A stretch of DNA of 63,990 bases, the filler included, from Rhizaria sp. SCN 62-66 (Eukaryota), in assembly GCA_001724265.1 (NCBI GenBank). It is 4 parts of 4 records of this genome, joined end to end, with 100 filler letters (N's around TTAATTAATTAA, not from the genome) between each part and the next. Parts side by side here need not be neighbours in the genome. Positions count along the whole stretch, not along the records: positions 25,967 to 41,601 come from MEDY01000496.1; 3 more parts are not named here. The stretch is one strand, 5' to 3'. Both the position numbers and the translations under genes were made by a program. This document shows, piece by piece, positions 9,453-54,492 of the stretch. The number at the start of each line of letters is the position of its first letter. Position 1 is the first letter of the stretch. The notes under the pieces are model-generated. The model worked only from the letters and a program-made list of their open reading frames with translations, had not been told where the DNA came from and ran no database searches.

Positions 9453-9484
<32 letters not shown>

Positions 9485-12400
9485 CAACCAACCGCAGCGG
9501 CCGCCGCGTGAGTAGCGTTGACGCGCGTGCCTGCGATGGCCGCGGCGAGCGCGTCGGCAAAGGCCGCGTCGGCGCACATGGCGTCGAGTGCGGCCTGCGC
9601 GGCTGCGGCGACGGCGTCGGCGCCCGCAGCCTCGGCGGCAACGACCGAGGCCGTGGCGGCGCGCACGTGCGTCTGCTGCGCGTAGACGGGGTGCCAGAGC
9701 AGGCGCGCGAGCGGGCCCGTGAGCGTGTGCGCCACGCCCTCGAGCGCGGTCCACTCGGGCCCCACCAGCGTCGCGCCCAACGTGCGCGGCGCCGGCAGCA
9801 CCGGCGCCGTGGGCGGCACGCCCGGCGCGCCGACGAGGCCCGCCGAGAGCAGCGCTGCGGGCGACGCCGCCAGCGCCTCCGCCGGCAGCGCCAGCGGCGC
9901 GGGGGCCGCAGTCGCTGTGGCTGCGGGGGCACCGGCAGCAGCGGCGGCGGGCGCAGGCACGGGCACGGTCACGGAGATGGGGACCGCGGTCATGAGGACC
10001 GCAGGCGGGCCCGCGGCGGCGCTGAGCAGCGCGTCGAGGAACGCGGCCGTGACGGCGCCGGCTTCGGACGCGGCGTGGGGCTTGTGCTTGTCGGCGTGCG
10101 CCTCTGCGCCAGCGGCGGCGGTGGCCGCGGCGGCCGCGGCGGCCTCGGAAGACAGTCCCGCGAGCGCGGCGGGCAGCGCGCCCATGGGGGCGGCGGCGGC
10201 GGCGCGGCGCAGCAGTGTGGCCGCCACGGCGCCGAGCCCGCAGGCAGCACGCCCGCGCCCGCTGGTGCGCCCGCGGCGGCGGCGGCGGCCTCGGCGCAGA
10301 AGCGCGCCAGCGGGGAGCGCGCGAGCACGGCGGGCAGCGTGACGGCGGGCAGCCCGCGCAGCGCGAGGCGGCCCTTGACAGTTACCGACGCGGGCCCGCG
10401 GCGAGACGCAGACGCGTCGCCGGCGCCGTCATCGTTGGTGTCGCTAGACTTGGTCTCGGCGAGCTTCGAGGTGATAGTGAGGGGCACGGACACGGCGGCA
10501 GCCTTGCGGCCGCGGCCCAGCCCGCCGTCGCGGCTGCGGCCGGCGCCGTGGCCCGCCGCGAAGGATGCCACGCTCGTCGTGGGCGCCGCGGCGGGCGCGC
10601 CGGCAAGCGTGACGGCGGCCAGCAGCGCCCGCTGGCCGTGGTCACGCCCGCCAAAGCTTGCGCCGACGCAGGCAGCGGCGCCGCGGCGGCCGCGGTCGAG
10701 AGCGCGGCGGCGGAGGCGTCGCCGGCGGAGCGCGGGCGCGCGGGCGAGGCCTGCTGCGAGGACGCGGCGGAGCTGGGCGAGGCGAGCCCGATTACGGCGA
10801 GGTGCTGCTGCTGCTGCGCGACCGAGCGCGACTGCGAGTAGAGTGGCGCCTGGCCCAGCTGCGTCGGCGACAGGATCAGTAGCGATAGCAGCCGCGCGGG
10901 CGGCGCGTACCACACCGGCCGCGCCCAGCACTGCACCGGGACCGGGGCCGCGGCGCTGGTGTCAGCCTCGACCACGCCGCTCTCGGACTCGCCGCTCGCC
11001 GCCGCGGCCGCACTCGCGCTGTCGCCCGCAGGAGCAGCATCCTGTTGCTGGTCGTGGTCGTAGTCCTGGTCGAGCTCGGGCTCCTCGCCCTCTTCGAGCC
11101 CGATGACGGCGACCGGGTCGGGCTCGTCGCCCTCGGCGTCCTCGGGCGGGGACGCGAACACCACGTGCGGCAGCTCGCCCACGCCCGCGGCGCCGACCCA
11201 CCGCGCGGGGTCCTCGCACAGCGTCTCGACGGACCGCAGCAGCTGTCCGCGCGCGACGCGCGGCGCCACCACGCGGCCCATCGCGGCCACCGCGCCCAGG
11301 CACGTCTGCCGCACCTGCCACACCGGGTCCGCGCACAGACGCAGGAAGAAGGGCAGCAGCTTCCGCGCAGTCGCCGCGCGAAGGCTGCTCACCGTCACCA
11401 CGGGCGCCGCCGGCGCCTCGGGCACGGGCTCCACAACCTCAGCCTTCGCAGCCTCGGTCTCCACCTTCACAGTCTCAGTTTTGGCAGTCTCAGCTTTGGC
11501 CGTCTCGACAGCTTCAGCCTTTGTAGCAGTTGCGTCGCTGTCAGATGCGAGCTGAACTGCGACGTCAGCGGGCGCTGCGACAGGCTCTGTGCTCGCGTCG
11601 GCGAGAGCGTTCGCGTCGGCGCTGGCCTTGGACTCAGCCTCGGTGCCGGCCTCAGTCTCGGCCTCAACCTTGGCCTCCGCCTTGGCCTCTGTCTCGGGCT
11701 CAGTTTCCGTCTCAGTTTCCGTCTCAGTCTCTGTCTCCGTATCCGTGTCGGTCGCCTCGCCGCGAGCAGCCTTGGCCTGAGCCGCAGCGTCCGCGGCGGC
11801 CTCCGCCGCCGCCTGTTGCTGCGCCGCGACGACGGCTTTGCCGGCGGCGACCACGGCCTCCGCGGCCTTGGCCTCAGCCTCGGCGCGCGCCTCCTCAGCC
11901 GCGGCGCGGGCCCTCGCAGCGGCGGCGCGAGCGGCCGCGGCGCCGCCGGCGCGCGGACGGGGCGGCATCTCGATGCTGGTGGTGACGGCCGCGGCGGCGG
12001 CGACGGAGATGGGACCGAAGCACGCGGCCGCGCCCCAGCGCACCTGCATTACGGGGTCGTCCGCGAAGGCGACTAGCTCGGCCGAGAGCAGCGACGCGCA
12101 CAACGAGGGGTCCAGCGACGGCGCGATGCCGCGCAGCGTCGACAGCGCCGACACGCGCACGTCCTCGGGCGCGGCGTGCGCCAGCGGCAGCAGCTGAGGC
12201 AGCAGTAGGTCCGACACGAGCGTCGTCGCCGTGGGGTGCGTCGCCGCGCCGTGCGCGCGCGTGAAGGCCGGATCCAGCAGCTGCGCGGGCGGCCGCGGCG
12301 GCGGCGGCAGGCGCGCCATCGCGATGGCGGCGTCGCGCGCGCGCTCACGGATCTGTGGGCAGCGGTCCGCCAGCAGCATCACCAGCACTGGCAGCACGTG

Positions 12401-15346
12401 GTCCGCCACCAGCGCCATCGACGAAAGCCGCAGCGGCGGGTGCGCGGCGGCGGCGACGGCGGCGGCCGAGCCGGGGCCCGCATGCTCGGGCGCGCCCACA
12501 GCGACGGCGGCCGAGCCCGCGGAAGATTGCGTGAGCGACTGTGGCGAAGGCACCGCGAGCGCGCCCGCGGAGGAGGCCGATGAGCCGGAGAGCGAGACCG
12601 ACAGCGCACCGTGCGCGGGCGCCAGCGAGGCCATCTCCTCGCCCCCCGCGGCGCCCGCGAACAGGCCCTTGCCGGACGCCCGGCGCGGGCTCGCGCTCGG
12701 CGTGCTCACTGCGCTGCCACTGCCGTTGTTGCTGCCGGAGACGCTGGCCGCAGGGCCCACGCCCGCCGCGCCCGCGGGCAGCAGCAGCGAGACGGTGTTG
12801 CCGCCACTATTACCGCTGCCCGTGTCGCCCGCGCTGGCGCTGCCGCCACCATCCTTGGCCGCGGGCGCCGTGACCGTCACCGAGGGCGTGCCCGCGACGG
12901 CCGCGGCGCCCGGGGACGCCGAGTTGGCTGCGGACGAGGCCGCAGCGGTGCGCGACGAGGGCGACGGCGAGCGCGAGCGCGAGCGCAGGCCGAAGAGTCG
13001 GCGCCAGCCCGATCGCTTGGTGTTCTTGCTCGCGGCGGGCGCGGCGGCGTCTGCGTCGTGGTGCTCAGGCTCGGGCTCGTGTCCGTGCTCGTCGTCGCCC
13101 GCGCCCGCTGCGTGGTCCGCGCCGTCGACCGTGGAGCTCGACGCCGCCGTGTCAGTGTCGTCGCCCGCCGTCGCCACGGAGCTCCCGCGGTGCCCGCGCA
13201 CCGAGGCGCCGCTCGCGCCGTCGCCGTCGCCGCTCGTCGACACGCTCGCGCCGCCCGCGCCAGGCCCGTCGCCGTCGCCGGTCGTGTCGTTCGCCGCGGC
13301 GGCGGCGGCGGCGGCGGCCTCCGCGGCGGCCTCTGCCTCGGCGGCGGCCGCTGCGGCAATGGCAGCCGCGGCGGCGGCCTCTGCCTCCGCGGCCGCGGCG
13401 GCCTCTGCGACGGCGCGCGCGGCGTGCACTGCGGCCTTCTTGCGCCAGCGCCGCGCCGTGGTGATGCGGCGCACGCAGTCACGCTCCCAGCCGCGGCCGC
13501 GCGCGCCGCCGTCGCGGTCCGCCGCCGCCAGCAGCCCCTGCAGCTGCGCCTGCGCGCCGGCCTCCTCGCCTGCCACCGTCGCCGCCGCGCGCACGGCGGC
13601 CTCGGCGGCCGCGGCCTGCGCGTCGGCGTACGCGCCCAGGTCCGCGCCGAAGGAAAAACCCGACCGGACGCGCCCTGGCAGCGCCGTGAGCGCGCCCGCG
13701 CTGGCGCTCGAAGCGAAGCCCGCGCTGTGGCGGCTGCGGCCGAAGCGGGCGCCGGTCGAAAGAGAGAGCGCGCCCACGCTCGCGACCGTCGGCAGGTCGC
13801 CGCCGCTCTCGGAAATGTCGCCCAGCGCACCGCTGCCGCTGCTGCTGCTGTTGCTGCTGTTGCTGTTGCTGCTGGTGGCGTCGCTGGCGCTGCTACTGCT
13901 GCTGTCGAGCGGCGGCAGACTAACTGAGGTCACCAGCGCGCCGGGCACAGCGCCCTCTTCGGCCGCCGCAGCCTTGGCCGCAGCGGCGGCCTCTGCGGCG
14001 GCCATGAGCTCGGCTGCGGGCACTGGCGGCGCCTCGAAGGCGGCGCGGTACGCGGCCGCCGCGGCCTCGGTCGCCGCCGCCGCCGCGGCCACTGCGTCCT
14101 CGCCCTCGCCGCTCGCGCCCGCTAGCCCCGCCTCAGCGGCAGTACCAGTGGCAGCGGCAGCGGCAGCGGCGGCAGCGGCGAGAGCTAGCGAGTTGCGACG
14201 CGAGCTGGAGCGGCTCCGCAGGACCACCTGCACTGGCCGCGCCTTGCAGCCCGCGTCGCCGCCCGCGGCGGAGCCCACGCCCGTGCCGCCCGCCGCGCCC
14301 GCGCCCGAGGCCGAGCCGGAGCCCGAGCCGGAGCCCGAGCCGGCGCCGGCGCCAGCGGAGCCCGCGCCCGCAGCCGGGGACGCCGGCGCGGAGGCCGCTG
14401 TGGCGTACAGCCCGGCGCCTGCGGCCGCCGCGTCGCCGCCCGCGGCCGCCGCAGCGGTCGTTACGCTCAGCCACGGCCGCACCGGCTTCGCGGGGGTCGC
14501 GGCTGCGGCTGCGGCTGCGGCTGCGGCTGCCGCTGCGGCTGCGGCAGCCGCGGCTGCGGCATCCTGCGCCGAGGACTTCCAGAGAAAGCTGCGGCGCTTG
14601 AGCGCCGGGGAGGCCGCGGCGGCGACGGCGGCTTGCGCGGCGGTCTCGGCGGCGGCCATGGCGGCGGCGGAGCCGGGCGGCGGTGCGGTGAGCGTGGCCA
14701 TGGACAGGTTGTAACCGAGCAGCCCCTTGTGCATCTCGTCGTCGTCGACCTCGATGGCGCCCTCGGTGACGAGCAAGTGCGCCAGCGCGGGCAGCTGCTG
14801 CACCAGCACCATGCGCACCGCGATCAGCGAGTCGCGCGCGATGTCGCGCAGCAGCGGCAGCAGGCGCGCCGCCGTCGCCGATGGGCCCACCTCCTTGGCC
14901 GTCGCCAGCAGCCGCGACACGAAGACGAGCCGCCGGAAGTCGTCCGCAAACGGAATCTCGTCGCGCGCGTCCGCGGCCGCCGCGCTGGCCGCGTGCGGGG
15001 ACGCCGCGCCCGCCGCGCCGCCCGCCGCGCCAGCGCCGGTGCCGGCGGCGGAGGACGAGGACGACGGGGACGTGAGGGCCGAAGCCACGCCGCCGGGGCC
15101 TGCGCCGGCGCCCGCGGAGAGCCCGCCGGGGCCCGCGGGCGCGGGGGTGCCCGGGAGGTAGGCCGTGGCGGAGGCAGGGCGCGCGCGTGTGTAGAGGATG
15201 AAGCGTTCGAGCGCGGCAATGTGCTCGGGAATCGCCAGTTCTGCAGCGGTGCGGCCGCGGGCCAGAGAGCCCGGGGCGCCGCCGCCGCCGCCGCCACCGC
15301 CGCCGCCGGACGCCACGGGACTGGCGGCACCGCCGGAGCGCGACAT
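4000..15346 (-). CDS. Giant HEAT-repeat protein, PP4 regulatory subunit 1 (PP4R1)/PP2A-A-like, about 3780 aa, with two apparent 1-nt frameshifts near 10630 and 10240
   Basis: HEAT units LLPLLRDIARDSLIAVR, VLPVLVMLLADRCPQIR, FADDPVMQVR, LLPFFLRLCADPVWQVR, LCEDPARWV, WRERV, LLSDPVRRV and SEDANVEVR are spread over three successive frames (15346-10382, 10931-9990, 10227-4000) and separated by Ala-rich inserts. TAA stop. Confidence 0.7.
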
Positions 15347-16433
15347 GGGGACGCGGGGGAGCGCGAAACGCGCGGGTGAGCCGCGGAGCGGGGGTGAGCG
15401 CGCGCGCGGAGAGTGTTGTGGCGGGGGAAAAGAGCCGAAGTTGGGGTGGGCTCCGACAGAAGAAAAAAGAGTTGCTGCGCGGAAACAAACGAGGTAAAAG
15501 ATACAGAGAGAGTATACGTAATTTCGATGAGACGTGATTCGGTAGCAAAGTCATGTCAGTTGAAATATGCCTTTGTTTCGGTGATATGTGGACCCGAAAT
15601 GACGACAGCGTGACTCTAAGTCAGATGTGGGGATGTTTCCTGCGTCTCACAGGGGAACCAGGAAGTAGCCATAAGCATCCTAGGAGAATTATGCGATATA
15701 TGTGCATGACATAGAGTGGTGTTGCACCGTCCGGAGATCACACCGCACTCGCCCGGCCCGTGGACCCGCGCTTTTGTGCGTGAGGAGGCGTGAGGCGGGG
15801 CGGCGTTGAGTCCCCACAATTGAGGGTAAATATCTTCCAAGACGTTTAATTTATAGGCCCAAACCACACACCCGCAAATATTTCTGCCCACGTTCTCACT
15901 AATAAAACTGTTATATCGAGCCAGACGTAGAGCGAAGGTGGGCTTGAACGTTGATTAGTCCGTATTTCGACAAGTCGAGTGAGACTGAGTGAGTGAAGGT
16001 AGTGTCGGTCGGCCAAGTTCGTAAAAATGTCACCCGAATTCTACTTTCGACGGCTGGCAGTGTGTTGGAGGGCCCACGTAGCAATATTGTCTCCACGTTC
16101 TCTGCCTTAACTGCTCGTCGGCTCGATTTCGGAACGTGATATCAGCACAGAAACAGAGGCTTTGTAATAGAATATCGTGCATATGTGACCTGTGACGATG
16201 AGATAACTCTGTGGTATTCGTCGCAAAAACGAGGGGGTTGTTGCGGTCAACGCAGAGCCGTAGTCTCCTTACTAGCGTGCGCCGAGCTCGTCCTGGCCTC
16301 ATGCTCTAAGTACGATATAGTATGCTGCCCATTGTTGCCATACTTTCTCACATTCCTCTCTGTGGTGCCGTCCTACGCCCTCTTTTTCATCTCCCTGCAA
16401 CTTCTTTGCCCCTCGGTCAGTCCCTTTCTCCGT

Positions 16434-26276: not shown

Positions 26277-27693
26277 TTACTCGTCCTTCTTGGCAGCCTT
26301 GGCGGCCTCCGCAGCGGCCTTAGCGGCGGCAGCCTCGGCCTTGGCGGCGGCTTCATGACCCTTCTCGTTCTTGTAGTCGAAGTTGAGCGTGAGACGGAGA
26401 CGTTCGTGGATCGCGAACGCAATGGCCATCGACGGAATCACTTTGAGCAGGCACGCGTTCAGGCCGCGGTACAGGCCGCGCACGCCTGCATAGAGAACAA
26501 CACACCAAAGACAACAGCCAAGAGAAAATGTGAAGTGAGTTGAGACTAATGAAAATTAATTGATGCGGCAGCATATACGTTAAAATCATACAGAGCTTAT
26601 CGAGAGGTTACATAAGATGCTTGTAAAATAGTACCTTCGGTCTTGATGGTGACCCGAACGCAGTCGAGCGCGCCGTTGACCGGAGCCATGTCGGCCGACA
26701 GCATCGACTTGCCGACACCCTGTAGCTGCACACGGCGGCGCACAACATCTGTCGGGTACGTGATCAGCGCGGCCACGCCACCCGACACGCCGCCCAGAGC
26801 AAGGTTCACCACCGTGAACGACGGGTCGTCGCGCGGGGGCAGGAAGCGGTGCTTGAGCGTGTCGAACACGAAGAAGTTGATCGCGCTAGTTTAGTGAAAA
26901 ACAATTATGAATTGAGAAACATAAAGACCAGTGAGAATTTAATGCGTGAAATTGTTGTCTCAATAGTGCTACTTGCAGCTTCGATCTCATGAACCAAGTT
27001 AGAACAACTTTCATTAAAAATCATAGACTTCATATCATGAAAAGAACAGTGAAGAGATAGCGTGACCTACATGTAGGGCGTGATGCCTGCGAGTGTGGCA
27101 ACGCAGCCGCGGAAGAGCCCACGCATGCCATCGGCCTTGTGGATGGCCTTCATGGTGCCCCAGATGCCGTTGAACTGTCCGTGGTTGGTCTGTACGGTGA
27201 GGTAACTCCGCACGATATCAAGCGGGTAACAAATGAGCGACGATGTCGACCCCGCCAGCGCGCCCGCAGCCAGAGTCCACATCGGCGTCAGCTTCTCGCC
27301 GCCGCCGCCACCCCCGGCGGCCGCGACCGTGCCCGCGCGCGGCGCCTCGCAGGCCGAGGGCACGAGGCGCGTGAGGGCAACCTTGTACATGTCGAAGAAG
27401 AGGAACTGCAGCGCGGCGTTGGGTGCGATGCGCGCGACGTTGGTGCCGTTGCCCTTGAACAGGCCGCGCCAGCCTTCGGACTTGTACATGTGGCGCAGCC
27501 CGGAGACAATGCCGTTGTACTCAGGGTTCTTCTTGGACTGGATTTGCTGCATCACCTTGAGGCGCTCGAGGGGCGACGTCGCCGACCGGGAAACGGCGCC
27601 CGCGATAGCGCCGGACAGGCCGTTGATCGTCGTCTTCCACGCCGACTCAAGCCACGTGGACTCCTTGGAGGCGGAGGTGCGGGCGGTGGACAT
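26277..27693 (-). CDS. Mitochondrial carrier (SLC25; adenine-nucleotide/CoA carrier-like); exons 27693-27071, 26885-26635, 26485-26277
   Basis: Three PX[DE]XX[KR] signatures (PLERLK, PLDIVR, PTDVVRRR), plus GLFKGNGTNVARIAP and GLYRG. GT-AG introns restore the frame (PYI|AINF; TEG|VRG). TAA stop. Confidence 0.93.
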
Positions 27694-28204
27694 CGCGCTA
27701 CGACGGTCTGTTGTGGCGATAAGTCAACAGAGCGTGAGCCGAGGCAGGACACGGGGCGCGACGGACATAGGGGGGAGCAGAGGTGGCAAAAATGTGAGTG
27801 CGCAAGTGAAACTAAAGCCGCAAGAAGTGAAAAAAATTATGGTATAATAAAAAGGTAAATTCTCATTGGTGGTACCGTAGTTAACGCTATAGACGGATTG
27901 TGCATAACACATTCAATTCTTGCGCAAAGCCACTTCGAGTGACCGTGGCTTCAGGACGGCGAGAGTGGCCATTTTGCGGCGTGCGAGGCTCGCTTTTTGA
28001 ACGTTAATATCCTTGCATAGTTAGACTGTGCACGAGTGTGAATGGCCTTAATAAGGACCCCGTTGCGCCGGTTATCTATTTCGTTTCTGAAATGCGCTTT
28101 AAATTCGCGTTTACGCTGTAAAAATTCCCAATCCTATTTGCATGTCGAATCTCACCCTCCCCAAACCTCTTCACTTCCTGTTCCATCATCAGGCGCAGAG
28201 TCGA

Positions 28205-31200
28205 ATGTCCGAGTACCCCGCGTCCTTGCTCGGCGAGAGCGGCGAAGCTGCGGGTTACATTCCCATGCAGCTGGACCAGCGCGGTGCCACGTTCCTGGAG
28301 GCGTGCGGCATCCCTTACACAGGCATCCGCTACTGCCCCGACCGCGACACTTCAGACAAGACGACCGCGGCCGCGGCGGCTGCGTCGGGCCAGCCCGTGC
28401 CCAAGACGCGCGCCTTTGTCGAGCGCGCCAACGTGCAGTAGCACTACATCGTCAAGACTCTCGTGTTCTGCGACTCAAAGCAGACGCAGGCGTTCGTGGT
28501 GCTGATGCACGGCGACTGCCGCGTTGATATGAAGAGCCTCGGCAGGCAGATCGGCGTCCCCAAGATAGTCCAGGCGCCCATCGAGATGGCTCAGGAATGG
28601 TCCGGCTACATCATGGGCGGCACCTCGCCCTTCGGCCTTGCGCGCCCCATGCAGGTTCACATCGAGAAGTCCATCCTCGACCTTCCGCACAAGATCATCA
28701 TCAACGCCGGCCGCCACGACTCGTACTTGCTCATGGAGCCCAAGGACATAGCGCGCGCATTCACCACCGAAGCCGCCGTCGCCGCGGGTTTCCCCCAGAT
28801 CAAGGTCGTCCAGTGCGGTAAGGAGCGTCCCCCGCCCGCCCCCCTCGGCGGCGGCTCTGATGCCGCTGCCACGGCCGCTGCCGCTGCTGCAGCGGGCTCG
28901 CCCGCTGCTGACGCCACCGGCGCTGCGAGCCCCATCTCTCCGTCAACTGGCACGAAGCGTCTGGTGACCGGCCCTGCCCCCGCGCCCGTGGCGCCCTCTC
29001 TGGCCGCTCTTCAGGCCGCCGCGGCCTCAGCCGAGCTGCCCGCCTCCGCGACCACCGCGCAGCACATCGTCGACGCCCTCGACACCGCGCTCGCCGAGCT
29101 CGAGGTCCTCACTTCCATGTACCCGCAGAACAACGTCCACCCTGACGCCGCCAGCGCGAGTGCGAGTGCCAGTGCGGAGTTGGACCTGCGGGTGGAGCCG
29201 GCGACGCTCGTGGTGGACCTCACTGCGGCGCGCGCCAAGCTCGCTGCCGCTGCCAAGCGCAAGGAGCCCCTCCGCACACATAACCCCGCTGCGCTCGGTC
29301 TGCCCGCCTTCATCCTCACCGTGCGCGACACTGCGGCCGAAGGCACGGGCTTTGCGCTGGCGCTCACGGCCCCGGCCGGTTACCCGCTGCTGCCGCTGTC
29401 GGTGACGCCGTTTGTCCCCGGAGAGGCCACCGCGCGCCCCGGCCTGCGCGTGCTCGCCGCGGAACTCGACGCTGAGGCCGGCCGCTGCGCCGCGGCGCGC
29501 GCCGAGGCCGCTTACGCCGTTGTTGAGCTTGCTAAAACGAGCTTCGGCCCCACGGTCGCTAACTACAAGAACGGTGCGAGCGCTGCCGCAACCACGGCCG
29601 CCGCCGCCGCCGCCGCTGCCGCTGCGCCGGTAGTCGTGCTTCCCGGCCGCGGCGCATCCGCCGCTGCGGGCGCCGCCGTGGCCGCGGGCGCGATGCGTTC
29701 GACCGTGCGCGCGCCTGAGTCTGCCTCGACTGGCGACGGGCTGCTGCAACCGGGCCCGCTGACCAAGCCCACGGGCGAGCTGGCCGTGTTCAAGCCGACG
29801 CTGAGCACCGCCGCGGCCGCCGGCGAGGGCCCCTCGCAGTCGCAGCTAGTCGGCGCGGGCGTGCGTTGTCTCGCGACGAACCGCGCCACTGTGGCCGACG
29901 ACGACTCAGACTTCCGGTCGACGTATGTCCCATTGTTAGGCCGCCTCGTTGTGGGCGAGAAGGGCCGGCCGAAGGAAGTGGCGGAGCTGTCGTCACCCAT
30001 GACCGCGATTGCGCCCGGCGCCGCGATCCGGTGGCTGGGCAAGCCCAAGAGTCAGATCCGCCTCGGCTTCGTCGGGCTGCCCAATGTTGGCAAGAGCTCG
30101 CTGTTCAACCTCGTGTCGGGCATGCAGGTACGCGCTATCGAGAGCAACAATGACGGCCATGGCAACAACACGAGCAAGAGCAACGGTCGCATGGCCACTG
30201 ATGCTGTATCGACTGCGAAGGCTGCTGCTTCAAGCATCGGTGCTGCAATCAGCGGCGCTGTGACTGCCGCCGTGCTGCCGCTGCAACAATCGCAGCCGTT
30301 GTCCGTATCAACAGTCCTCGCCTCGCTCATGTATGTTGTCGCGTCATTGATGTCATGTAGTCTATTCCTTAACATGAACATATCACACACTGTTTGGTTT
30401 CATATTGTTTTTCATGTTTACCCACAACGTTAACAATCTCTCCTCTGCTCATGTTCTTTGCTTTCACAACATCTCGTGTTTAGGTCCTGGCGGAAAACTA
30501 CGCTTTCTGCACCATCGACCCCAACGAGGCGCGTGTGCCTGTCCGCGACGACCGCGTCGAGCGCGTTGCGCGCTGCTTCCGCACTGGCTCCAACGCCAAC
30601 TCTGGCAGCAGCAACAGCGGCAGCAGCGGCAACAGCAGTCACAACACCGCGGTTGGAACCGTGCACGACGCAGCCTCGTCCGCAGCCCACCAGCAGGCCC
30701 CGCCGAGTAACTGCACGTTCGCGTCCGTGGACGTCATTGACATCGCGGGGCTTGTCAAGGGCGCTTCGCTGGGCCGCGGCCTTGGCAACGCGTTCCTGCA
30801 CCACATTTCCACCGTGCACGTGATCTTCCAGGTTGTGCGCGCCTTCGATGACTTGGAGGTGGTGCATGTTGAGGGCGCGCTGGATCCTGTGCGCGACATC
30901 GAGATCATCACGGCCGAGCTCATTGCCAAAGACACCGAGGAGATGTGCAAGCGCATCGAGCGCGCGGCGGGCAAGTTGTACCGCTCCATGGTGCAGTCGC
31001 AGGGCAAGGAGCTGCGCCGCGAGTTGGCCATCCTGCTCAAGGCGTACGAGTGGCTCGTCGCGGGCCGCTGCCTGCGCCACTGCGCGTGGACCGAGCCCGA
31101 GCACGCGTACCTGTCGACGCTGCAGATGTGGACGTCGAAGCCGACGTGCTTCTTGGTCAACATGTCTGCGCGCGACTATGCCGACGCCGTCCAGCGCTCG

Positions 31201-32262
31201 GAGCAGTGCGCACGCGTGCAGGCCTGGGTGGACGCCAACTCGCCGGACTCGGCCGTGGTCCCTATCAGCGTCCGGTTCGAGCAGGCCGCGCTGCAGTGCC
31301 CGCCCGAGGCCAAGCGCGAGTTTGTGATTGACGTCGCCGAGCGTATGGCTGCCGTCGCCGCAGAGTCCGCGGCCGCGCGTGTCCGGGCTGAGGCTATCGC
31401 CGCTGAGCGCGCTGCGAGCAAGGACAAGAAGGACAAGAAAGATAAAGGCGACAAGAAGGACAAGAAGGAGGGCGGCAGCAGCAGCAGTCGCAGCGCCAGT
31501 CGCACCGGCAGCCGCAAGAGCTCCGACAAGGACAAGGACGCCGACAAGAGGGACAAGAAGGACAAGAAGGACTCCAAAGACAACAACAAGGGTCCTGAAG
31601 GCTCTTCTAGCAGCGCGAGCTCTGCGCAGTCCACCGACCCCGAGTGCGGCGGCGCGAGCGAGAGCGAGAACGGCATCCCCACGGCGGTGCCCGTCGTGCG
31701 CATGACTGAGGTCGTCGCCCTCGCGCGCGGCGAGCGCCCCACCGCGGCCGCAGACGCAACGGTGCAGAGCGCGTGGGCGCGCGCCGTGTGGTCTTGTGCG
31801 CTCGGTGCTGTGTGGCAAGAACGCACCGACAGCGGTGCCGCGGCGGCCGACCCGTCACACGCCGCCGCCGCGGGTGCGGTGGGCAACGCAGTGAGCGCGG
31901 ACTGCGAGCCAGCGCGCGGTCGCGTGGGGCTCCAACCGCGCGAGACGAGCGCGCTGCACTTGCTGATCCAGGCCGGGTACCGCGCGTGCGATATGGTGCG
32001 CGTGTACCTTATTGGGGAGGACTCGCACGTCAAGGCCGCGTTTGTGCGCCGCGGAACGCCCGCCGGACAGGTGTCGGGGCTGTTGCACCACGAAAACCCC
32101 GACCGGTGCACCGCAGTCCAGGTCTACCCGTGGGACGCGTTCGTCGCGCAAGGCTACGCGCTGGACGCGATGCGCAAAAATAACACGCGTCTAATCAAGA
32201 CCAAGGCATATGAGGTCCAGGAGGGCGACATTCTGAGCTTTACGCTGAAGCCCGCCGCGTAA
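28205..32262 (+). CDS. YbaK-type aminoacyl-tRNA deacylase + RWD + OLA1/YchF-like OBG-family NTPase fusion; exons 28205-30127 and 30484-32262; contains in-frame TAG at 28439-28441
   Basis: YbaK: KTLV, GYIMGGTSPFG, INAGR. RWD: ELEVLTSMYP...LTAPAGYP. YchF: GFVGLPNVGKSSLFN, AENYAFCTIDPN, DIAGLVKGASLGRGLGNAFLHHI, VVRAF, VHVEGALDPVRDIEII..EL, YEVQEGDIL. TAA stop. Confidence 0.88.
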
Positions 32263-36285: not shown

Positions 36286-38718
36286 TCAGCGACGCCCCTT
36301 GCCCTTCTTGCGTCCCTTGCCGCCGTCGTCGCTGTCGCTGCCGGTCGTATTCTGCTGCTGTTGCTGCTTGTTGCCCTGTGCGCGCTTCTGCGCCTGCGCA
36401 ATACGTTGCTCGAGCTCCTGCTTGGCCTTGCCGCTGACGGCCTGCCCCATCGCCAGCTTCACCTGCGTCTTGCGCAGCCGCAGTGCGTCTGCGCGCGCCG
36501 CCGCCAGCTCCGCGGCCTTCTTGGCTGCCGCAGCTTCCTTGGCGTTCAAGGGTGCAGCCCCAGGCGCAGCGCCGGCGTCGGGTGTGGCAGCGCCAGTCGC
36601 CACGGGGGGGGCGGATTGCTTGAGGAGAGTCTCCTCGACCTTAGTGCGCAGACGGCGCAACTGCTTTGGGTTCAGCTTCTTGCCCGCTGACTGGCGCACC
36701 ACCTCCGCCTGCACGCGTGCCTCAAAACCATCATCGTCGCCGTCGCCGTCGCCGTCGCCATCATCTTCTTCCTCCTCCTCTTCGTCGTCGTTGTCATCGT
36801 CATCAGAAACAGGAGCAGGCTTACCCTTGCTCTTGGCGCTAGCGGCGGCCTTTGCAGCCTCAGCAGCCTTTGCATCCTTGGCGGCCTGGCCAGGAGACGT
36901 GATGTGGGTCTTCTGCAAGCGCCGCTGCAGCAGTGCGACATAGTGCGCGCGCTCAGCTGAAGTCAGTTTGCCGCTCTTGATGCGCTCCGCAATCGTCGTC
37001 AGAGACACATTCTCTGCTTCATCGTCGTCCTCATCCTCGTCTTCAAGCTCATCCTCATCCTCGTCCTCGTCAAAGTCTTCGTCATCATCTTCCTCCTCGC
37101 CGTCGTCAGCAGCAGCAGCTGAGGCAGAAGCAGCAGCGCCCTTCGCGGCCCCGCTTTCCTTGGCAACCGCAGCTGCAGCCTCGCGCATCTGCCGCTCTTC
37201 CTCCAACAGCTCCTGCTGCATGCGCTGCCGCACCTCGGCCACGCGCGCCTTGTGCTTCTTCGTCTGTCCGTGTTGTTCCCACTGCGCCTCGGACCGGAAC
37301 GAGCTGCGGCACGCCTCGCACACAAACGCCACGACCTCCTCGTCTTCCTCTTCGCTCTCACCGTACTGTTCGATGTGCAGCCGCCGCGCTTCTTCCGCGT
37401 CCGCCTCGGCGGCCTCCTTCGCCGCCGCCCGCGCCGCGCGCTTGGCCTCGGCCGCCTCGGCCGCGCGCGCCGCCGCGACGGCAGCGCGCGCGTCGCGCAG
37501 CGCCTGCTCCTCGCGCTGAACGCGGGCCCACCGCGGGTCGCGCCGCTGCAGCGTGGCGACAAGGCGCCGCACGGTCTCGTTGAACTCGCGCTTGGCGGCG
37601 CCTCGCTGCTTGGCGTTGATAGTGTCGATCTGGCGCCGCTCAGCGCGGTTGCCGCCGTCGTGCACGTCGTACTTGTCGTGCCACGCAAACGAACGCCGCG
37701 TCTGGAAACCTTGCCATGCGGCGTAAAAGGCGCGCACCGCCGCGCCGCCGCTGCGGGACGTGCCGAAGCCAGGCAGACGGCGCAGAAGCTCGGCGACCTG
37801 TGGGCCCGCGCCAGTCGCGAAGCTGGAGTTAGTCTTGGCGGAGTCCTTCTGCTGCTGTTGCTGCTGCTGTTGCTGGGGATTGGGCTGGGGAGTGCGGTGC
37901 GGGAGCGGCGAGCTGGGCGTGGACACGTCGTCGTCGATGTCGTCAACGCCGCCAGTACTGTAGGAGTTACTACTACTGTTGCCGTAGCCAGGGTCGTCAT
38001 CGATATCGTCGACGCCGCCACTAGACGAGCTTGCGGTCGCGTCAGTGGACTGCTTGTTGCTGCTAGAAGAGCCGTCGTTCTCAGCTTCGGCGGCGTCCGC
38101 GGCGGCTTCGAACGCGGCGGCAGCGGAGTCGAAGTCAGCGTCGCTGAGCGACAGCGCAAGCTCCAGCCCCTCGAGTGACACAATCGTGCGGAACACGCGC
38201 CGAAACACGGCGAAAAAGCCGCCGGGGCCGTCGCCCAGGCCAGAAAACGCCGTCACGGAGAAGTACGCCATCAGGTTGATTCCGTCCGGGTGGTCGTCGG
38301 GCTCACCGCTGCCGCCGCTGGCGGCGCCGCGCGCGCGCCCGCGCAGGAGCGCCTCGCGGTGCGAGTTGTACCACGCGCGCTCCTGTGGGTCTGAGAGAAC
38401 CTCGTACGCCTCTTGTACGCGCTTGAAGAGCTCAGCAGCGTTCTCCTCGTTGTTCTGAAGATGGAAGTGGGGGCAATGACAATGGCAGTGAAGATTGGCG
38501 TGAGAAACTAGAGCAGATTTCGGGGTTGTTAGGGCAAGAAACTATACGGTCTGGCCATAGTAAGAGCACGCGAGAACGATTTAACTTACATGGTTGCGAT
38601 CAGGGTGGTGCTGAAAGGCAAGCTTGCGGTAGGCGCGGCGAATCTCGTCGTCGTCAGCCTTGAGGGTCACGCCCAGCACCGCGTAGTGGCACTGCGGCGC
38701 GCTGGGATCAGCGCTCAT
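36286..38718 (-). CDS. DNAJC21: DnaJ homolog subfamily C member 21 (Jjj1-like; J domain + C2H2 zinc finger); exons 38718-38590 and 38454-36286
   Basis: CHYAVLGV...[20 protein letters not shown]...TTCAG intron, [46 protein letters not shown]...[33 protein letters not shown] stop. Confidence 0.93.
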
Positions 38719-49101: not shown

Positions 49102-52100
49102 TTACAATAAATAGCGTTTGAGGTCCATCTCGACCTCGTCCTCTTCCTCCTCCCACTCGAAGTCAACATCCTCCAGCAGCGGATTCAGCTCACGAGCCAC
49201 CCACACTGCATCCACCAGCGCGTAGACCCACACGCCGTCCGCGGGCCCGCGCCGCGCCGTTTCTTCGGCCTCTGCCGCGGTCATTGTCTCCAGGGACTCA
49301 GTTGATGGCCGCGCGGGACTTAACCCGGCCGCCCAGGGCCGCGCGCGCACTTCCGCCCGCGCGGCCGCAGCAGCATCGCCGGGCCCCGCAAGCGCACATA
49401 GCTCACGCCACTCCTCCGCGGCGCGCGCCACGAGCGCGGGCGCGTGGAAACTCAGCCGCTCGAGCGCGGCACCCACCACAGTCTGCAGCCGGCGCGCGCC
49501 GATGTCGTCCTCTCCGTGGCCCTGGTTGTGCGCCGTCCCGCCGTGTGAGCGCGCCGCGGAGTGGTGCTGCGGGGATACAGAGAGCAGAGGTGCGGCGCCC
49601 AAGGCTTCGCGGGCGCGCGCGGCGTCGCGCTGGCGGCGCGCGTGCGAGAGCCGGCGCGGGCGGTACATCGGCGAGGTCCACGCGCGCCACGGGTCACTCT
49701 CCTCGCTGGACTGCGCCGCCGAAACGGCTGAGTCAGCAGAAGTCGTAGCAGTGGCAGTCGCATCGGTCCCGTTCGTAGCTGTGCAGTCGCTCTTGTTCGC
49801 TTGCGACGATGAAGACATAGATAGAGATGAGTCGGCTGTGGCTGCCCACGCGCCCTTAGCTGCGAGCGCGGTCTCCGCGGCGGCCTCATCCTCCTCCGCC
49901 GCCGCGTCAGCCGCGTCAGCCTCGGCCTCTGCCTCCGGATCGCGTCCGTTGAGCCCCACCGCGGCCTCCGCCAGCGCGCGCGCCGCGCCCGCAGTCGCCT
50001 CGAGCGCGATGCCCTCAGAGCGCAGCAGCGCCGCATGCTGCCGCAGCAGCGCGCGCTCGCCGGCGACCAACACGCGCGCCAGCGCGGCGGGGCCCAACGG
50101 GGACAGGTCCGCACGCAGCGGGAGACGGCCACGCAGTTCGGGCAACAGGTCCTCGGGCCGCGAAACGTGAAACGCGCCCGCGGCAACGAAGAGCACGTGC
50201 GTCGTGTCCACAGGGCCGGCCGAGGTCTTAACGGTTGTACCTTCCAGCAGGGTCAGAAGCTCCTTCTGAACGCCCTCACCTTTGGCCCCCAGCGCGCCCG
50301 CCCCGGTCACAATACTCCCGTCGCCGTTTGACACCGAGCCGGGTGCAGGCGCGTACTGCTGCTGTTGCTGCAACAAACGGCGGCGGCGACGCGCAGCAGC
50401 GGCGCGCACCGCCTCGCTCGCGCCCGCTGTATCTGCGTTAGTTCCAGCCTCCTTGGTGCGGCGCGAGAGCAGTGCACTCTTGCGGGCCCGCCGCGCCGCC
50501 GTGGCCGCCGCCGACGCCGACGCAACGGCGCCGCCGACGCCGCCCGCGCGCGCGGCGGAGCGCCCGGGGCGCGCGAGCTTATCGACCTCGTCGAGGAACA
50601 CCACGCCCGCGCTCGCGGCGGCGCGCGCGGCGACGGCGTCGAGCAGCGCGCGGGACAGGGGCGCGGGCGGCTGCGGATGCACCGCGGCCGCGGGTGCGAG
50701 CGCAGGCGCGGGCAGCGGGGCGGCGGCGGCGGCGGCGGCGTGCGGCGCGGCGACCGAGGCGGGGATGGCCCACCGGTGCGCGAGGGAGTGCCGCAGACGG
50801 GCCAGAGCGGCGGCGGCGGACACGCGGGAGCGCGGGCCGGGGGCGGCCGCCGCGGCGGCGACTGCCAGCGCTGCTGAAGGATCAAGCGGGGGCATGCCGG
50901 CGCCGTGACTGCCGCCGCTGATGCCGCTATGTGCAGTGCCGCCGATGCTGTTGTGGCTGCCGTGGTGCGAAGGCGCGACGCCGAGGCCGAGGGAAGCCAG
51001 AGAGGAGCGCAACAGCGGGGACGTCCCCGCGCCGCTCGCCCTGAATGAGCCGGGCGACGACGACGATAACATAGACGATGACGATGACGAAGAAAGCGAC
51101 GATTGCGACAAGGCAGATGACGATGACAGATTAGACAGCTCACTGAACGCAGTGCCCGCGATAGGCACCAGTGAAGAGGTCTCGCCGCGGTTGAAGGCGA
51201 CAGAGTCCGATCCAAGAGTGTACTGGCCAGACGCGGCGTGACTTTGAGTCAACGCGGCCTGACTTTGCGTCAGCAGACGGGCCTCGTAAGCGGGGTCAGC
51301 GTCATCGTCTTGGTAACCGCCGCCGCCGCCGCCACCGCCGCCACCGCCGCCGTGAACAGAGTCGTTGCCCCCGCCTAAGATGCCGCCCAACAGCGACGCG
51401 AGCGGCACCTGCATCGCCCCACCGCCCCCGCCGCGCCCGCCGCCGCCAAGGACGAGCGCGCCGCCCGGTGCGGCGGGGCCGGCGGTTGCAAGCGCGTGGG
51501 CCAGCCCCAGCGCGTCGGGCGGCGGCGGCGGCAGGGCGAGGTCGAGAGAGCACAGCAGCAGCGGCAGCGGCGCGGGCGCGGCCGGCAGTGCAAGGGTTAG
51601 CGAGGCCGTCGCGGCAGTGGCGGCGGCGAAGGCGGCGGCGGTCGCGGCCAACGAGGGCGCTCCGGGCAGCCACGCAGCGAGACTGGCGCCGTAGCCGCTC
51701 AACTCGTTATCCTAATCCTGATCGCGATCATCGCTGCGACTGGGCCGAGTGGTGGTGGGGACGCTCTCCGACGCAGACACGGGGGCGGCAGCATCTGCGT
51801 CCGCACTCTTGTTCGCAGCAACAGAGGCAGTGCCCGCGTTGATACTGTTGTCGGGCTCGATCGGGGCGACCTCGATGACAACAGAGCCGAAGATCGAGCC
51901 AGACAGCCCACTCACCCCGCCGCCGCCGCTGCTTTCACTGTCAACAGTGTGGTTCATAGACCCGGCAAGCGGGGAGTCACGCGCGCCAGGCAGCGCAGGC
52001 AACAAGTCCCAGCTCGATCCCATGGCAGTTGAAGCAGATGCTGCGTCCACAACGGTGGAGTTCGACGGCATCGCGGTGGTGTAGCCCACAGGAGAGCCCC

Positions 52101-54189: not shown

Positions 54190-54492
54190 GGCCGGCGAAC
54201 GTTATTCAGAAAGAGGTTGGTCGGGGCTATGGGTTGGAGTCGAGGAGAGAAGCAGCGGTGAGGAAGATGAGTATAACATCACAGTCGATCCGTCGTTGGC
54301 AATTTCGATTCATAATATAACTAATCCACAAAACCTTATCAACTATACTTTAAAATCACTGCTATACACGAGCGTAGTATGTGATTCCATTCTGGTTCGT
54401 TTTGCTGACGAGCAGTATCGTGCCTTGCAACTCGTATCTGTGCTCATCCCACTTCCCTGCATTCGTCCCTGTCTTCCACACATTGTTTTCAG

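Follow-up and report, generated by a model that had tools for sequence, protein, structure and literature searches.

Does a single eukaryotic gene join a YbaK-like deacylase domain, an RWD domain and a YchF/OLA1-like NTPase in one polypeptide, and what might such a protein do? The question is raised by a locus of Rhizaria sp. SCN 62-66, which we analysed within a 63,990-nucleotide stretch of DNA, filler included (hereafter the window). We are highly confident that the locus constitutes a single nuclear gene, from an uncultured eukaryote with GC-rich DNA and few introns, and that it encodes a 1233-aa cytosolic protein of a conserved YbaK-RWD-YchF paralogue family, whose NTPase part comprises a G domain, a helical domain, a charged insert and a TGS domain.

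Gene structure

The gene spans 28205-32262 on the plus strand, from an ATG at 28205 to a TAA that ends at 32262, and its product is 1233 aa long. These are exactly the coordinates given in the original prediction, which had also described one reading frame with one intron; the gene model agrees and adds an in-frame TAG at codon 79. The features of the gene are listed below.

28205..30127, plus strand: exon 1, 641 codons, encoding the YbaK domain, the RWD-like domain, an Ala-rich linker and the YchF P-loop
28394..28756, plus strand: YbaK / aminoacyl-tRNA trans-editing domain, aa 64-184 (Pfam range), from PF04073 (tRNA_edit), TIGR00011 and phmmer to 1dbu
28439..28441, plus strand: in-frame TAG, codon 79, apparently sense, occupying exactly one alignment column
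29033..29575, plus strand: RWD-like domain, aa 277-457, with an additional helix between strands 1 and 2, from profile, AF2 model, Foldseek and orthologue Pfam matches
30062..30121, plus strand: YchF G1/P-loop GLPNVGKSS, aa 620-639, last part of exon 1, from PF01926, aligned to OLA1 5ee0 residues 17-47
30128..30483, plus strand: intron, 356 nt, GT-AG, phase 0, GTACGC...TTTAG
30484..32259, plus strand: exon 2, 592 codons
30490..31329, plus strand: YchF G domain (switch I, G3, G4 variant NMSA) and inserted helical domain, from phmmer to 1ni3/2ohf and TIGR00092
31420..31590, plus strand: Lys/Asp-rich low-complexity core of an insert of ~200 aa between G domain and TGS, matched in position by charged inserts of L001 and P0008
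31945..32259, plus strand: C-terminal TGS-like YchF_C domain, divergent, from PF06071 and phmmer
32260..32262, plus strand: stop codon TAA, end of the ORF, with GC dropping to 0.45 downstream and homologues ending within a few residues

The start Met and the N-terminus of exon 1 could be aligned with those of P0003 and P0008, and P0003 covered aa 1-641 at 53% identity. The intron was placed according to the frame change between two ORFs and to its GC content (0.50), which is lower than that of exon 1 (0.70) and exon 2 (0.67); GC3 of the two exons was 0.84 and 0.855, respectively, and the GC content of the flanking intergenic DNA was 0.45-0.48. At the spliced junction SGMQ is followed by VLAENYAFCTIDPN, and this join is gap-free against the intronless orthologues (SGLQVPAENYPFCTIKPN in L001 and SGLRVPAENYPFCTIDPN in P0009). 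The relative P0003 also has V-R after SGMQ, as the window protein does.

Among the contigs of four sequencing runs, none contained the spliced joint 30127->30484, and an X3 contig (library kind not on record) was unspliced across 29878-31325. Five pieces of a polyA metatranscriptome run, X1, matched exon 1 and the region spanning the stop codon with zero differences; polyA libraries of this kind can contain DNA, and the pieces are read as a hint of expression only. The intron was mostly without cover in X1, a lack that proves nothing. Other joints listed in the runs were disregarded, as their sides of 20-28 letters lay within low-complexity repeats. Automatic gene callers broke the locus into pieces (P0005, P0153 and P0206).

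In-frame TAG and genetic code

The TAG at codon 79 is apparently read as sense. Its column in the alignment is occupied by E in five of seven homologues and by Q in the other two, and GC3 is high on either side of position 28439 (0.88 and 0.90), the only value used from a GC3-based scan for in-frame stops in which antisense frames of GC-rich genes act as a confounder. The ORF call P0005, terminated by this TAG, was present on 6 contigs from three source collections. Furthermore, a second gene in the window, HslU-like, has its Walker A part connected to the C-terminal AAA part only if TAG is read as sense.

Scans of the window for tRNA genes and against Rfam each returned 0 hits, so neither a suppressor tRNA nor a taxon marker was found there. 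Two other readings of TAG codons were rejected. Placing the codon-79 TAG inside a tiny 9-nt intron (GTGCAGTAG) would give an intron too short for the spliceosome and would remove three homologue-aligned residues, and the TAG that closes a mitochondrial-carrier ORF sits within a GTAGGT 5' splice site and was not taken as a sense codon. The title of the original prediction made no mention of the in-frame TAG, the decoding of which is required for production of the protein.

The extra interest that had been attached to the locus on account of an apparently altered code was not upheld: read with the standard code, two of the orthologues, L001 (1151 aa) and P0008 (1395 aa), show no interruption. 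Because these two have no in-frame stops, the fusion is not restricted to organisms in which TAG is a sense codon.

The YbaK domain

The predicted YbaK-like domain was recovered by PF04073 (E = 3.3e-20; 72.9 bits, cutoff 25.5), which places it in the YbaK / INS-like superfamily. In the phmmer alignment, K84 is matched to K46 of H. influenzae YbaK (1dbu), a residue whose role is described in the literature, and GYIMGGTSPFG is matched to GYLVGGISPLG. Both the K84-type Lys and the GY..GG.S.FG motif were invariant in 7/7 family sequences. Judged from its sequence, the YbaK domain looks active.

The family profile matched bacterial Cys-tRNA(Pro) deacylases with E-values of about 1e-43 to 1e-45 and 37-49% identity over the whole domain. 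In the profile search with A1, bacterial YbaK was dominant, and 119 of the 120 matches listed were PF04073-only proteins of 149-178 aa. The score for TIGR00011, the Cys-tRNA(Pro) deacylase equivalog, was 86.7 bits (E = 1.3e-24), under the cutoff of 153.25, and for this reason Cys-tRNA(Pro) is a substrate that we infer. The domain is thus like bacterial YbaK (Cys-tRNA(Pro)/Cys-tRNA(Cys) deacylase; 1dbu, 2dxa) in its PF04073 fold family, its K46-aligned Lys and its GY..GG.SP.G loop, but it differs in that subthreshold score and in the family-specific motifs PKT and LMHGD. Moreover, bacterial YbaK is a free-standing protein of ~160 aa, whereas here it makes up the N-terminal part of a eukaryotic protein of 1233 aa.

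The RWD-like domain

RWD domains are marked by an N-terminal E..E.L..(I/V/M)(Y/F) helix and a YP...P loop. The RWD-like region carries ELEVLTSMY and GYP, and the E, the Y and one downstream P are invariant in alignment A2, the spacing of the P being variable. The RWD domain of the original prediction stands on a profile match, a fold search and Pfam matches in two orthologues, but not on a Pfam call in the window protein itself, where PF05773 gave no match at E<=0.1. PF05773 exceeded its cutoff of 22.8 bits in P0009 (32.9 bits) and P0212 (27.4 bits), and had no match at E<=0.01 in L001, P0008, P0003, P0010 and P0162. A family profile built from 7 sequences and searched against the PDB matched 2dax, the RWD domain of RWDD2B (E = 6.5e-5). 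The AF2 model of the region, of moderate confidence (pLDDT 65), has the alpha-beta(4)-alpha-alpha fold of solved RWD domains, with the topology H-E-(H)-E-E-E-H-H. When searched with Foldseek, this model retrieved RWD domains at ranks 1-4 and 6, namely 2daw (E = 5e-4), 2dax (E = 1.2e-3), 7e2m, 2day and 2yz0, with TM values of 0.45-0.61.

The YchF/OLA1-type NTPase

The full YchF/OLA1-like NTPase that had been predicted is indeed complete, with its P-loop in exon 1 and the remainder in exon 2. Residues 74-280 of exon 2 matched 1ni3 and 2ohf by phmmer (E = 1.7e-52 and 8.7e-49, respectively). TIGR00092 on exon 2 alone gave 215 bits (E = 1.7e-63) against a cutoff of 279.2, the scored part being without the G1 motif and including the 200-aa insert. 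On the NCBI thresholds, neither the YbaK nor the YchF part scores as an equivalog. The G1, switch I and G3 motifs are preserved, and alignment to 1ni3 and 2ohf extends to the helical and TGS domains. For the C-terminal YchF_C/TGS domain, the third phmmer domain covered aa 488-588 of exon 2 against 2ohf and 1ni3. PF06071 scored 25.9 bits in the window protein, just under the cutoff of 27, which was passed by the orthologues L001 (61.7 bits), P0008 (48.3 bits) and P0162 (41.9 bits).

The G4 motif NxxE is associated with the ATP preference of YchF/OLA1. The window protein has NMSA at this site, compared with NMSE in S. pombe and NLSE in human, and thus departs from NxxE. Changes in G4 give ATPase activity according to the available part of one paper (PMC8629797). 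On its motifs, the YchF-type NTPase looks active.

Eukaryotic OLA1 gave the YchF part higher scores (168-182 bits) than bacterial YchF did (about 102-136 bits) and is the closer of the two. In the unrooted tree, all five RWD-linked YchFs lay on one side of a branch (SH-aLRT 99), apart from the 45 canonical OLA1/YchF rows, and they did not group with canonical eukaryotic OLA1. As placed by this tree, the RWD-linked YchF is a distinct paralogue with a clade of its own. It resembles YchF/OLA1 of known structure (2ohf, 1ni3 and 5ee0, and 8kie on the ribosome) in its domain make-up, a helical domain being inserted into the G domain and a TGS-like domain lying at the C-terminus. On the other hand, it differs from them in its separate clade, in NMSA for NxxE, in its switch II region (HHISTVHVIFQVVRAFDD), in divergent TGS motifs, in the charged insert of ~200 aa before the TGS, and in the N-terminal fusion to RWD and YbaK.

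Conservation and novelty of the architecture

The YbaK domain, the RWD-like domain and the YchF P-loop share the same ORF, all within exon 1. In L001, which is intronless, every part lies in one uninterrupted standard-code ORF (1172 codons from stop to stop); P0008 has the same domain order in one uninterrupted standard-code ORF, and P0009 has PF04073, PF05773 and PF01926 together on one protein. Since orthologues from metagenomes keep this order, some of them in one ORF, the locus encodes a single conserved polypeptide and not two neighbouring genes, and the three-domain architecture that had been predicted is real. From comparison of these predicted proteins, the fusion is conserved across several divergent uncultured eukaryotes.

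Searches of the full-text literature found no paper describing a YbaK-RWD-YchF architecture and no named protein that has it, and the original prediction likewise knew of no characterised protein with this architecture. The arrangement is an undescribed combination of known domains. A word-index search for longer relatives found no such relative in 8000 candidates, Ala-rich words having probably flooded the results, and the ESM Atlas gave no useful match for P0009 or for aa 1-520 of L001.

Three known systems bring comparable parts together. In yeast, Gir2/DFRP2 and Rbg2/DRG2 pair an RWD domain with a TGS-bearing Obg-family NTPase, as two proteins located on stalled or collided ribosomes with Gcn1, as described in the accessible portion of PMC8629797. 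Here, by contrast, a single chain carries both, and its NTPase belongs to the YchF subfamily rather than DRG; no DFRP, HTH or S5D2L Pfam domain was found in the window protein or its orthologues. The likeness is a functional analogy only and not DRG-DFRP membership. GCN2, too, has an RWD domain alongside a tRNA-binding module related to aminoacyl-tRNA synthetases and a ribosome-associating part, but the present protein has no kinase domain, and its tRNA module has the YbaK editing fold instead of a HisRS-like one. Finally, the pth-ychF operon of E. coli and other enterobacteria links YchF to a tRNA-ester hydrolase (PMC8779481, available in part). That is a bacterial operon of separate proteins with Pth (PF01195), whereas YbaK is the partner here and the fusion is eukaryotic. 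A giant HEAT-repeat gene at 4003-15550 on the minus strand of the window was considered as GCN1 and dropped, its sole PDB match being a weak one to PP2A-A.

Possible function and alternatives

The domain fusion hints at joint action of its parts at the ribosome. Our preferred reading, which is tentative and falls somewhat short of an even call, is that the protein would be a ribosome-proximal hydrolase of tRNA esters. The ribosome-docked tRNA-editing factor of the original prediction is plausible given the known properties of the individual domains. The YchF-type NTPase, together with the charged insert, would hold the protein at the ribosome, and the RWD domain would dock to a partner in the GCN1 / stalled-ribosome network, like the RWD domains of Gir2 and GCN2. 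The N-terminal YbaK domain, on a long flexible Ala-rich tether, would then hydrolyse the ester bond of wrongly charged tRNA near the ribosome, the substrate suggested by the nearest family being Cys-tRNA(Pro). Ribosome binding, the RWD partner, the substrate and a coupling of NTP hydrolysis to deacylation are all elements that we infer. In the parts of the cited papers that were available, YchF binds 50S at uL14, bL19 and H62 and helps to split ribosomes that have stalled (PMC11814078), the Gir2 RWD touches Gcn1 and its Obg-family partner Rbg2 adjoins the A site (PMC8629797), and E. coli ychF lies in one operon with pth, for another tRNA-ester hydrolase (PMC8779481). As a whole, gene structure and function together, we regard this as the best explanation and as evenly balanced between right and wrong.

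The same observations on YchF could instead point to a rescue hydrolase, in which the YchF paralogue would bind or split stalled ribosomes and the tethered YbaK-fold domain would cleave trapped aminoacyl- or peptidyl-tRNA, making the protein a fused eukaryotic counterpart of pth-ychF. The operon precedent (PMC8779481), the ribosome splitting (PMC11814078) and the work of RWD proteins at collided ribosomes via Gcn1 (PMC8629797), each as far as the available text goes, are consistent with this. One database ORF, P0251, combines a partial Pth domain with a full YchF, but it covers 118/183 Pth profile positions on a 2.7-kb contig and may be an assembly or frameshift artefact. Against a rescue role, the YbaK-fold domain is nearest to Cys-tRNA(Pro) deacylases, and YbaK-family enzymes are not known to act on peptidyl-tRNA, their known substrates being aminoacyl-tRNA; we consider this alternative unlikely.

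Bacterial YbaK acts with ProRS and tRNA(Pro) off the ribosome, and the YbaK domain might likewise trans-edit Cys-tRNA(Pro) in solution or on ProRS, with RWD-YchF regulating or stabilising it (e.g., under stress or by redox) and no docking to the ribosome. Many non-ribosomal partners of YchF/OLA1 have been reported in sources available in part. However, the YchF helical domain that contacts 50S is kept and aligns well (PMC11814078, in its available part), and the RWD fusion and conserved charged insert point to the ribosome; we consider off-ribosome editing quite improbable.

A GCN2-like tRNA sensor, in which YbaK would mainly bind tRNA 3' ends as the HisRS-like domain of GCN2 does, RWD would dock GCN1 and the NTPase would be the output, would fit the parallel with GCN2 in all three kinds of module, and the GCN2 RWD structures 7e2m and 2yz0 were among the fold-search matches. 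The invariance of the catalytic-type Lys and the substrate-loop motif in 7/7 sequences fits an active enzyme better than a pseudo-enzyme, and a sensor is very doubtful. Lastly, a misjoining of two neighbouring genes, a TAG-killed pseudogene or a mis-assembly, as the in-frame TAG, the lack of a spliced RNA contig in four runs and the split gene calls could suggest, is highly improbable given the ORF shared by the YchF P-loop with YbaK and RWD, the identical domain order in single ORFs elsewhere, the high GC3 on both sides of the TAG, the HslU-like gene that also requires TAG as sense, and the same arrangement on separate contig sets, which may share one sample.

Implications

Returning to the ribosome-proximal hydrolase, its most far-reaching form is a long shot: a new eukaryotic stalled-ribosome factor whose one chain would unite a Gir2-type RWD and an Obg-family NTPase, apart in yeast and on the A-site side, with a hydrolase that would strip the aminoacyl or peptidyl group off tRNA on or at the stalled ribosome. 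Such a natural 'Rosetta stone' would then give the YchF/OLA1 ATPase a role alongside tRNA-ester hydrolases across all domains of life, with pth-ychF as a comparable pairing.

No cytosolic enzyme that clears Cys-tRNA(Pro) is known from most eukaryotes. A YbaK domain tethered to a ribosome-binding NTPase would put proofreading of charged tRNA beside the ribosome. The intronless, standard-code L001 offers an easy construct for functional tests. YchF/OLA1 is universally conserved, and its molecular job is still debated. The YbaK-RWD-YchF fusion recalls pth-ychF in bacteria as well as the Gir2-Rbg2-Gcn1 complex of yeast. Being natural and conserved, this link to a tRNA-ester hydrolase and an RWD domain suggests in a concrete, testable way which partners YchF/OLA1 may have.

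Gene structure and composition

On the plus strand, 28205-32262 holds two long open frames that differ in phase. Since GTACGC directly follows 30127 and TTTAG directly precedes 30484, the two are predicted to be joined by an intron, giving a gene whose limits are exactly those of the original prediction.

28205-30127, plus strand: first frame (exon 1), from the ATG at 28205 and passing through an in-frame TAG at 28439-28441
30128-30483, plus strand: phase-0 GT-AG intron of 356 nt
30484-32262, plus strand: second frame (exon 2), ending with the TAA at 32260-32262

Base composition agrees with this two-exon, one-intron model: GC is 0.70 and 0.67 in the exons (GC3 0.84 and 0.855), 0.50 in the intron and 0.45-0.48 in the flanking intergenic DNA. 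The spliced product would comprise 1233 residues (641 + 592). No spliced RNA for this gene was seen in the contigs of four sequencing runs.

Elsewhere in the window, which contains 264 N, the ORF of a zuotin-like gene (36289-38541, minus strand; ZUO1 homology domain and C2H2 fingers) contains only the C-terminal half of the J domain, and an upstream intron is therefore likely. Two adjoining giant ORFs at 4003-15550 (minus strand; 2142 and 1722 codons, GC 77-79%) are probably one gene of ~3800 aa. They gave a single HEAT-repeat match, and their sole PDB match, PP2A-A, was weak.

Domains of the fusion protein

The N-terminal part is a YbaK domain (Pfam tRNA_edit, aa 64-184, E 3.3e-20), which also matched NCBIfam YbaK_EbsC (E 1.3e-24) with 86.7 bits, under the equivalog cutoff of 153.25. 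Its nearest relatives are bacterial YbaK proteins (37-49% identity), and its best match among solved structures is Haemophilus influenzae YbaK (1dbu). In that alignment K84 of the window protein corresponds to K46, a residue important for catalysis, and GYIMGGTSPFG to GYLVGGISPLG. The YbaK fold is thus apparently active.

Exon 2 matched the YchF profile TIGR00092 (E 1.7e-63) with 215 bits (cutoff 279.2), and it aligns to Schizosaccharomyces pombe YchF (1ni3) and human OLA1 (2ohf) in three pieces, namely switch I, the G domain plus helical domain, and TGS. An insert of ~200 residues with a Lys/Asp-rich core sits between the G and TGS domains, and the TGS domain is divergent (PF06071, 25.9 bits, slightly below the cutoff of 27). 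The G4 motif reads NMSA, whereas it is NMSE in S. pombe YchF and NLSE in human OLA1. By bit score, eukaryotic OLA1 is a closer match for the NTPase than bacterial YchF is. The NTPase appears to be active and of YchF type, and it includes both a helical and a TGS domain.

The middle segment received no Pfam RWD call in the window protein. A profile of seven family sequences, however, matched human C21orf6/RWDD2B in its RWD domain (2dax, E 6.5e-5); the matching profile positions, 276-449, coincide exactly with this segment. Residues 277-457 were modelled with AlphaFold2 from a 7-row alignment, and the model, of moderate quality (mean pLDDT 65, pTM 0.61), runs from a helix through four strands to two further helices, with an additional helix following strand 1. 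In a Foldseek search of the PDB, the RWD domains 2daw (E 5e-4) and 2dax (1.2e-3) ranked first, followed by those of GCN2 and RNF25, with TM-scores of 0.45-0.61 for the RWD matches; E2 and UFC1 folds ranked far below (E>1). When the aligned segment of the orthologues was scored, P0009 (32.9 bits) and P0212 (27.4 bits) exceeded Pfam's threshold for RWD and five others missed it. Given the profile match, the modelled fold and these two Pfam calls, we accept the middle domain of the family as RWD-like. The three-domain architecture originally proposed is borne out, with moderate support for RWD in the window's own copy.

One polypeptide and its relatives

The YchF P-loop, found by Pfam at aa 620-639, lies within exon 1. 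As it shares an ORF with YbaK and RWD, the fusion is independent of the intron. When 1.84 billion representative proteins were searched exhaustively with phmmer, 499 matched at E<=0.001, of which the best 150 were considered. Among these, eight sequences were read, and Pfam identified P0106 and P0137 as unrelated YbaK fusions; the remaining matches listed cover the YbaK range only, as judged by coordinates and lengths. A second search gave 265 matches, and among the best 120 listed PF05773 occurred in two and PF04073 in one, neither being found in NCBI- or UniRef-named rows. In a metagenome-contig scan, the RWD-linker and YchF parts were also matched in only one of the 80 loci kept (L001).

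Relatives of the fusion protein (P, database proteins; L, metagenome-contig locus)
P0003, 653 aa: 53% identity across the whole of exon 1; V-R after SGMQ, like the window, which fits an intron at the same site
P0008, 1395 aa: YbaK, RWD-like segment, YchF and TGS in one ORF
P0009, 804 aa: PF04073, PF05773 and PF01926 on one protein
P0010, 504 aa: YbaK and RWD-like segment
P0162, 622 aa (second search): RWD-like segment and full YchF; YbaK part absent or cut off
P0212 (second search): RWD and start of YchF
L001, 217-kb contig: whole protein in a single uninterrupted ORF, 1151 aa from Met

The window's splice junction aligns gap-free to the intronless forms, so the YbaK–RWD–YchF protein is a conserved single polypeptide. 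The proposed fusion on one chain therefore holds, both from the position of the P-loop and from L001 and P0008, which carry all parts uninterrupted. All of these relatives derive from metagenome or run assemblies, and their source annotations are 'Cys-tRNA(Pro) deacylase', 'hypothetical protein' or none.

A quick maximum-likelihood tree was inferred for 50 YchF regions, comprising the 5 RWD-linked ones and 45 hand-chosen from the other 119 rows listed in the second search (18 named, 27 unnamed); the rest, including the internally duplicated P0160 and P0161, were left out. In this unrooted tree, without bootstrap values and with canonical OLA1s of ~395 aa outside the sample, all five RWD-linked YchFs were grouped on one side by a branch of SH-aLRT 99. 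The window's nearest neighbour was L001 (52% identity over 359 columns). The RWD-linked sequences probably form a separate YchF paralogue. Among the papers listed by full-text searches of the literature, none brings YbaK and RWD together or reports a YbaK-YchF fusion. The component families are all known; for the three-domain combination and the putative paralogue we found no published description in that literature.

P0227, an OLA1-like protein of a different GC-rich eukaryote, has an apparent Hint/intein-like insert (PF05203, precomputed) directly after the P-loop. P0251, a 564-aa ORF, combines a partial peptidyl-tRNA hydrolase domain (118/183 profile positions) with a complete YchF; this could be a genuine fusion, or else an artefact stemming from the pth-ychF operon.

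In-frame TAG codons

The in-frame TAG of exon 1 is codon 79, a single alignment column in which five homologues have E and two have Q. The database protein P0005 is an ORF call ending at this TAG, on record for 6 contigs from three source collections. A second case is an HslU/ClpX-like AAA+ gene (49105-54201, minus strand; 1699 codons), in which ~1000 Ala/Ser-rich low-complexity residues and one in-frame TAG (51709-51711, minus strand; DRDQD-TAG-DNE) separate a Walker A part (aa 123-144) from an AAA_2 part (aa 1197-1361), so that TAG readthrough is required to link them. TAA or TGA terminates 16 of the 21 long ORFs examined. An apparent TAG stop in a mitochondrial-carrier gene (27067-27723, minus strand) was rejected, as it is part of the GTAGGT 5' splice site of an AT-rich GT-AG intron (26886-27063, minus strand; GTAGGT...CTAG), after which the frame picks up as ...PY I AINFFVFDTLK. 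By alignment, TAG at 28439-28441 and 51709-51711 (minus strand) seems to be a sense codon for E or Q. Reassignment of TAG only is known in a few protists (PMC5304391, PMC11687900); here it would be in a GC-rich non-ciliate eukaryote. The added interest once attached to the altered code is not supported, since L001 and P0008 lack in-frame stops and the fusion protein is thus no special feature of changed-code organisms.

Proposed function

The YbaK, RWD-like and YchF parts are connected by long low-complexity tethers and kept together as one chain. On collided ribosomes, the RWD domain of Gir2 touches Gcn1, and Rbg2, the Obg-family partner of Gir2, is placed next to the A site; GCN2 binds Gcn1 through its own RWD (PMC8629797). 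Enterobacteria transcribe ychF together with pth, which encodes peptidyl-tRNA hydrolase (PMC8779481). A rescue hydrolase whose target is trapped tRNA is an unlikely alternative for the fusion protein; an enzyme editing tRNA off the ribosome is somewhat less probable still, and a tRNA sensor is improbable. We favour a ribosome-docked tRNA-editing factor, as originally proposed. The RWD-YchF part would deliver the protein to ribosomes that may be paused or collided, where the tethered YbaK domain would hydrolyse a tRNA ester; its substrate would most likely be an aminoacyl-tRNA that is mischarged, for example Cys-tRNA(Pro).
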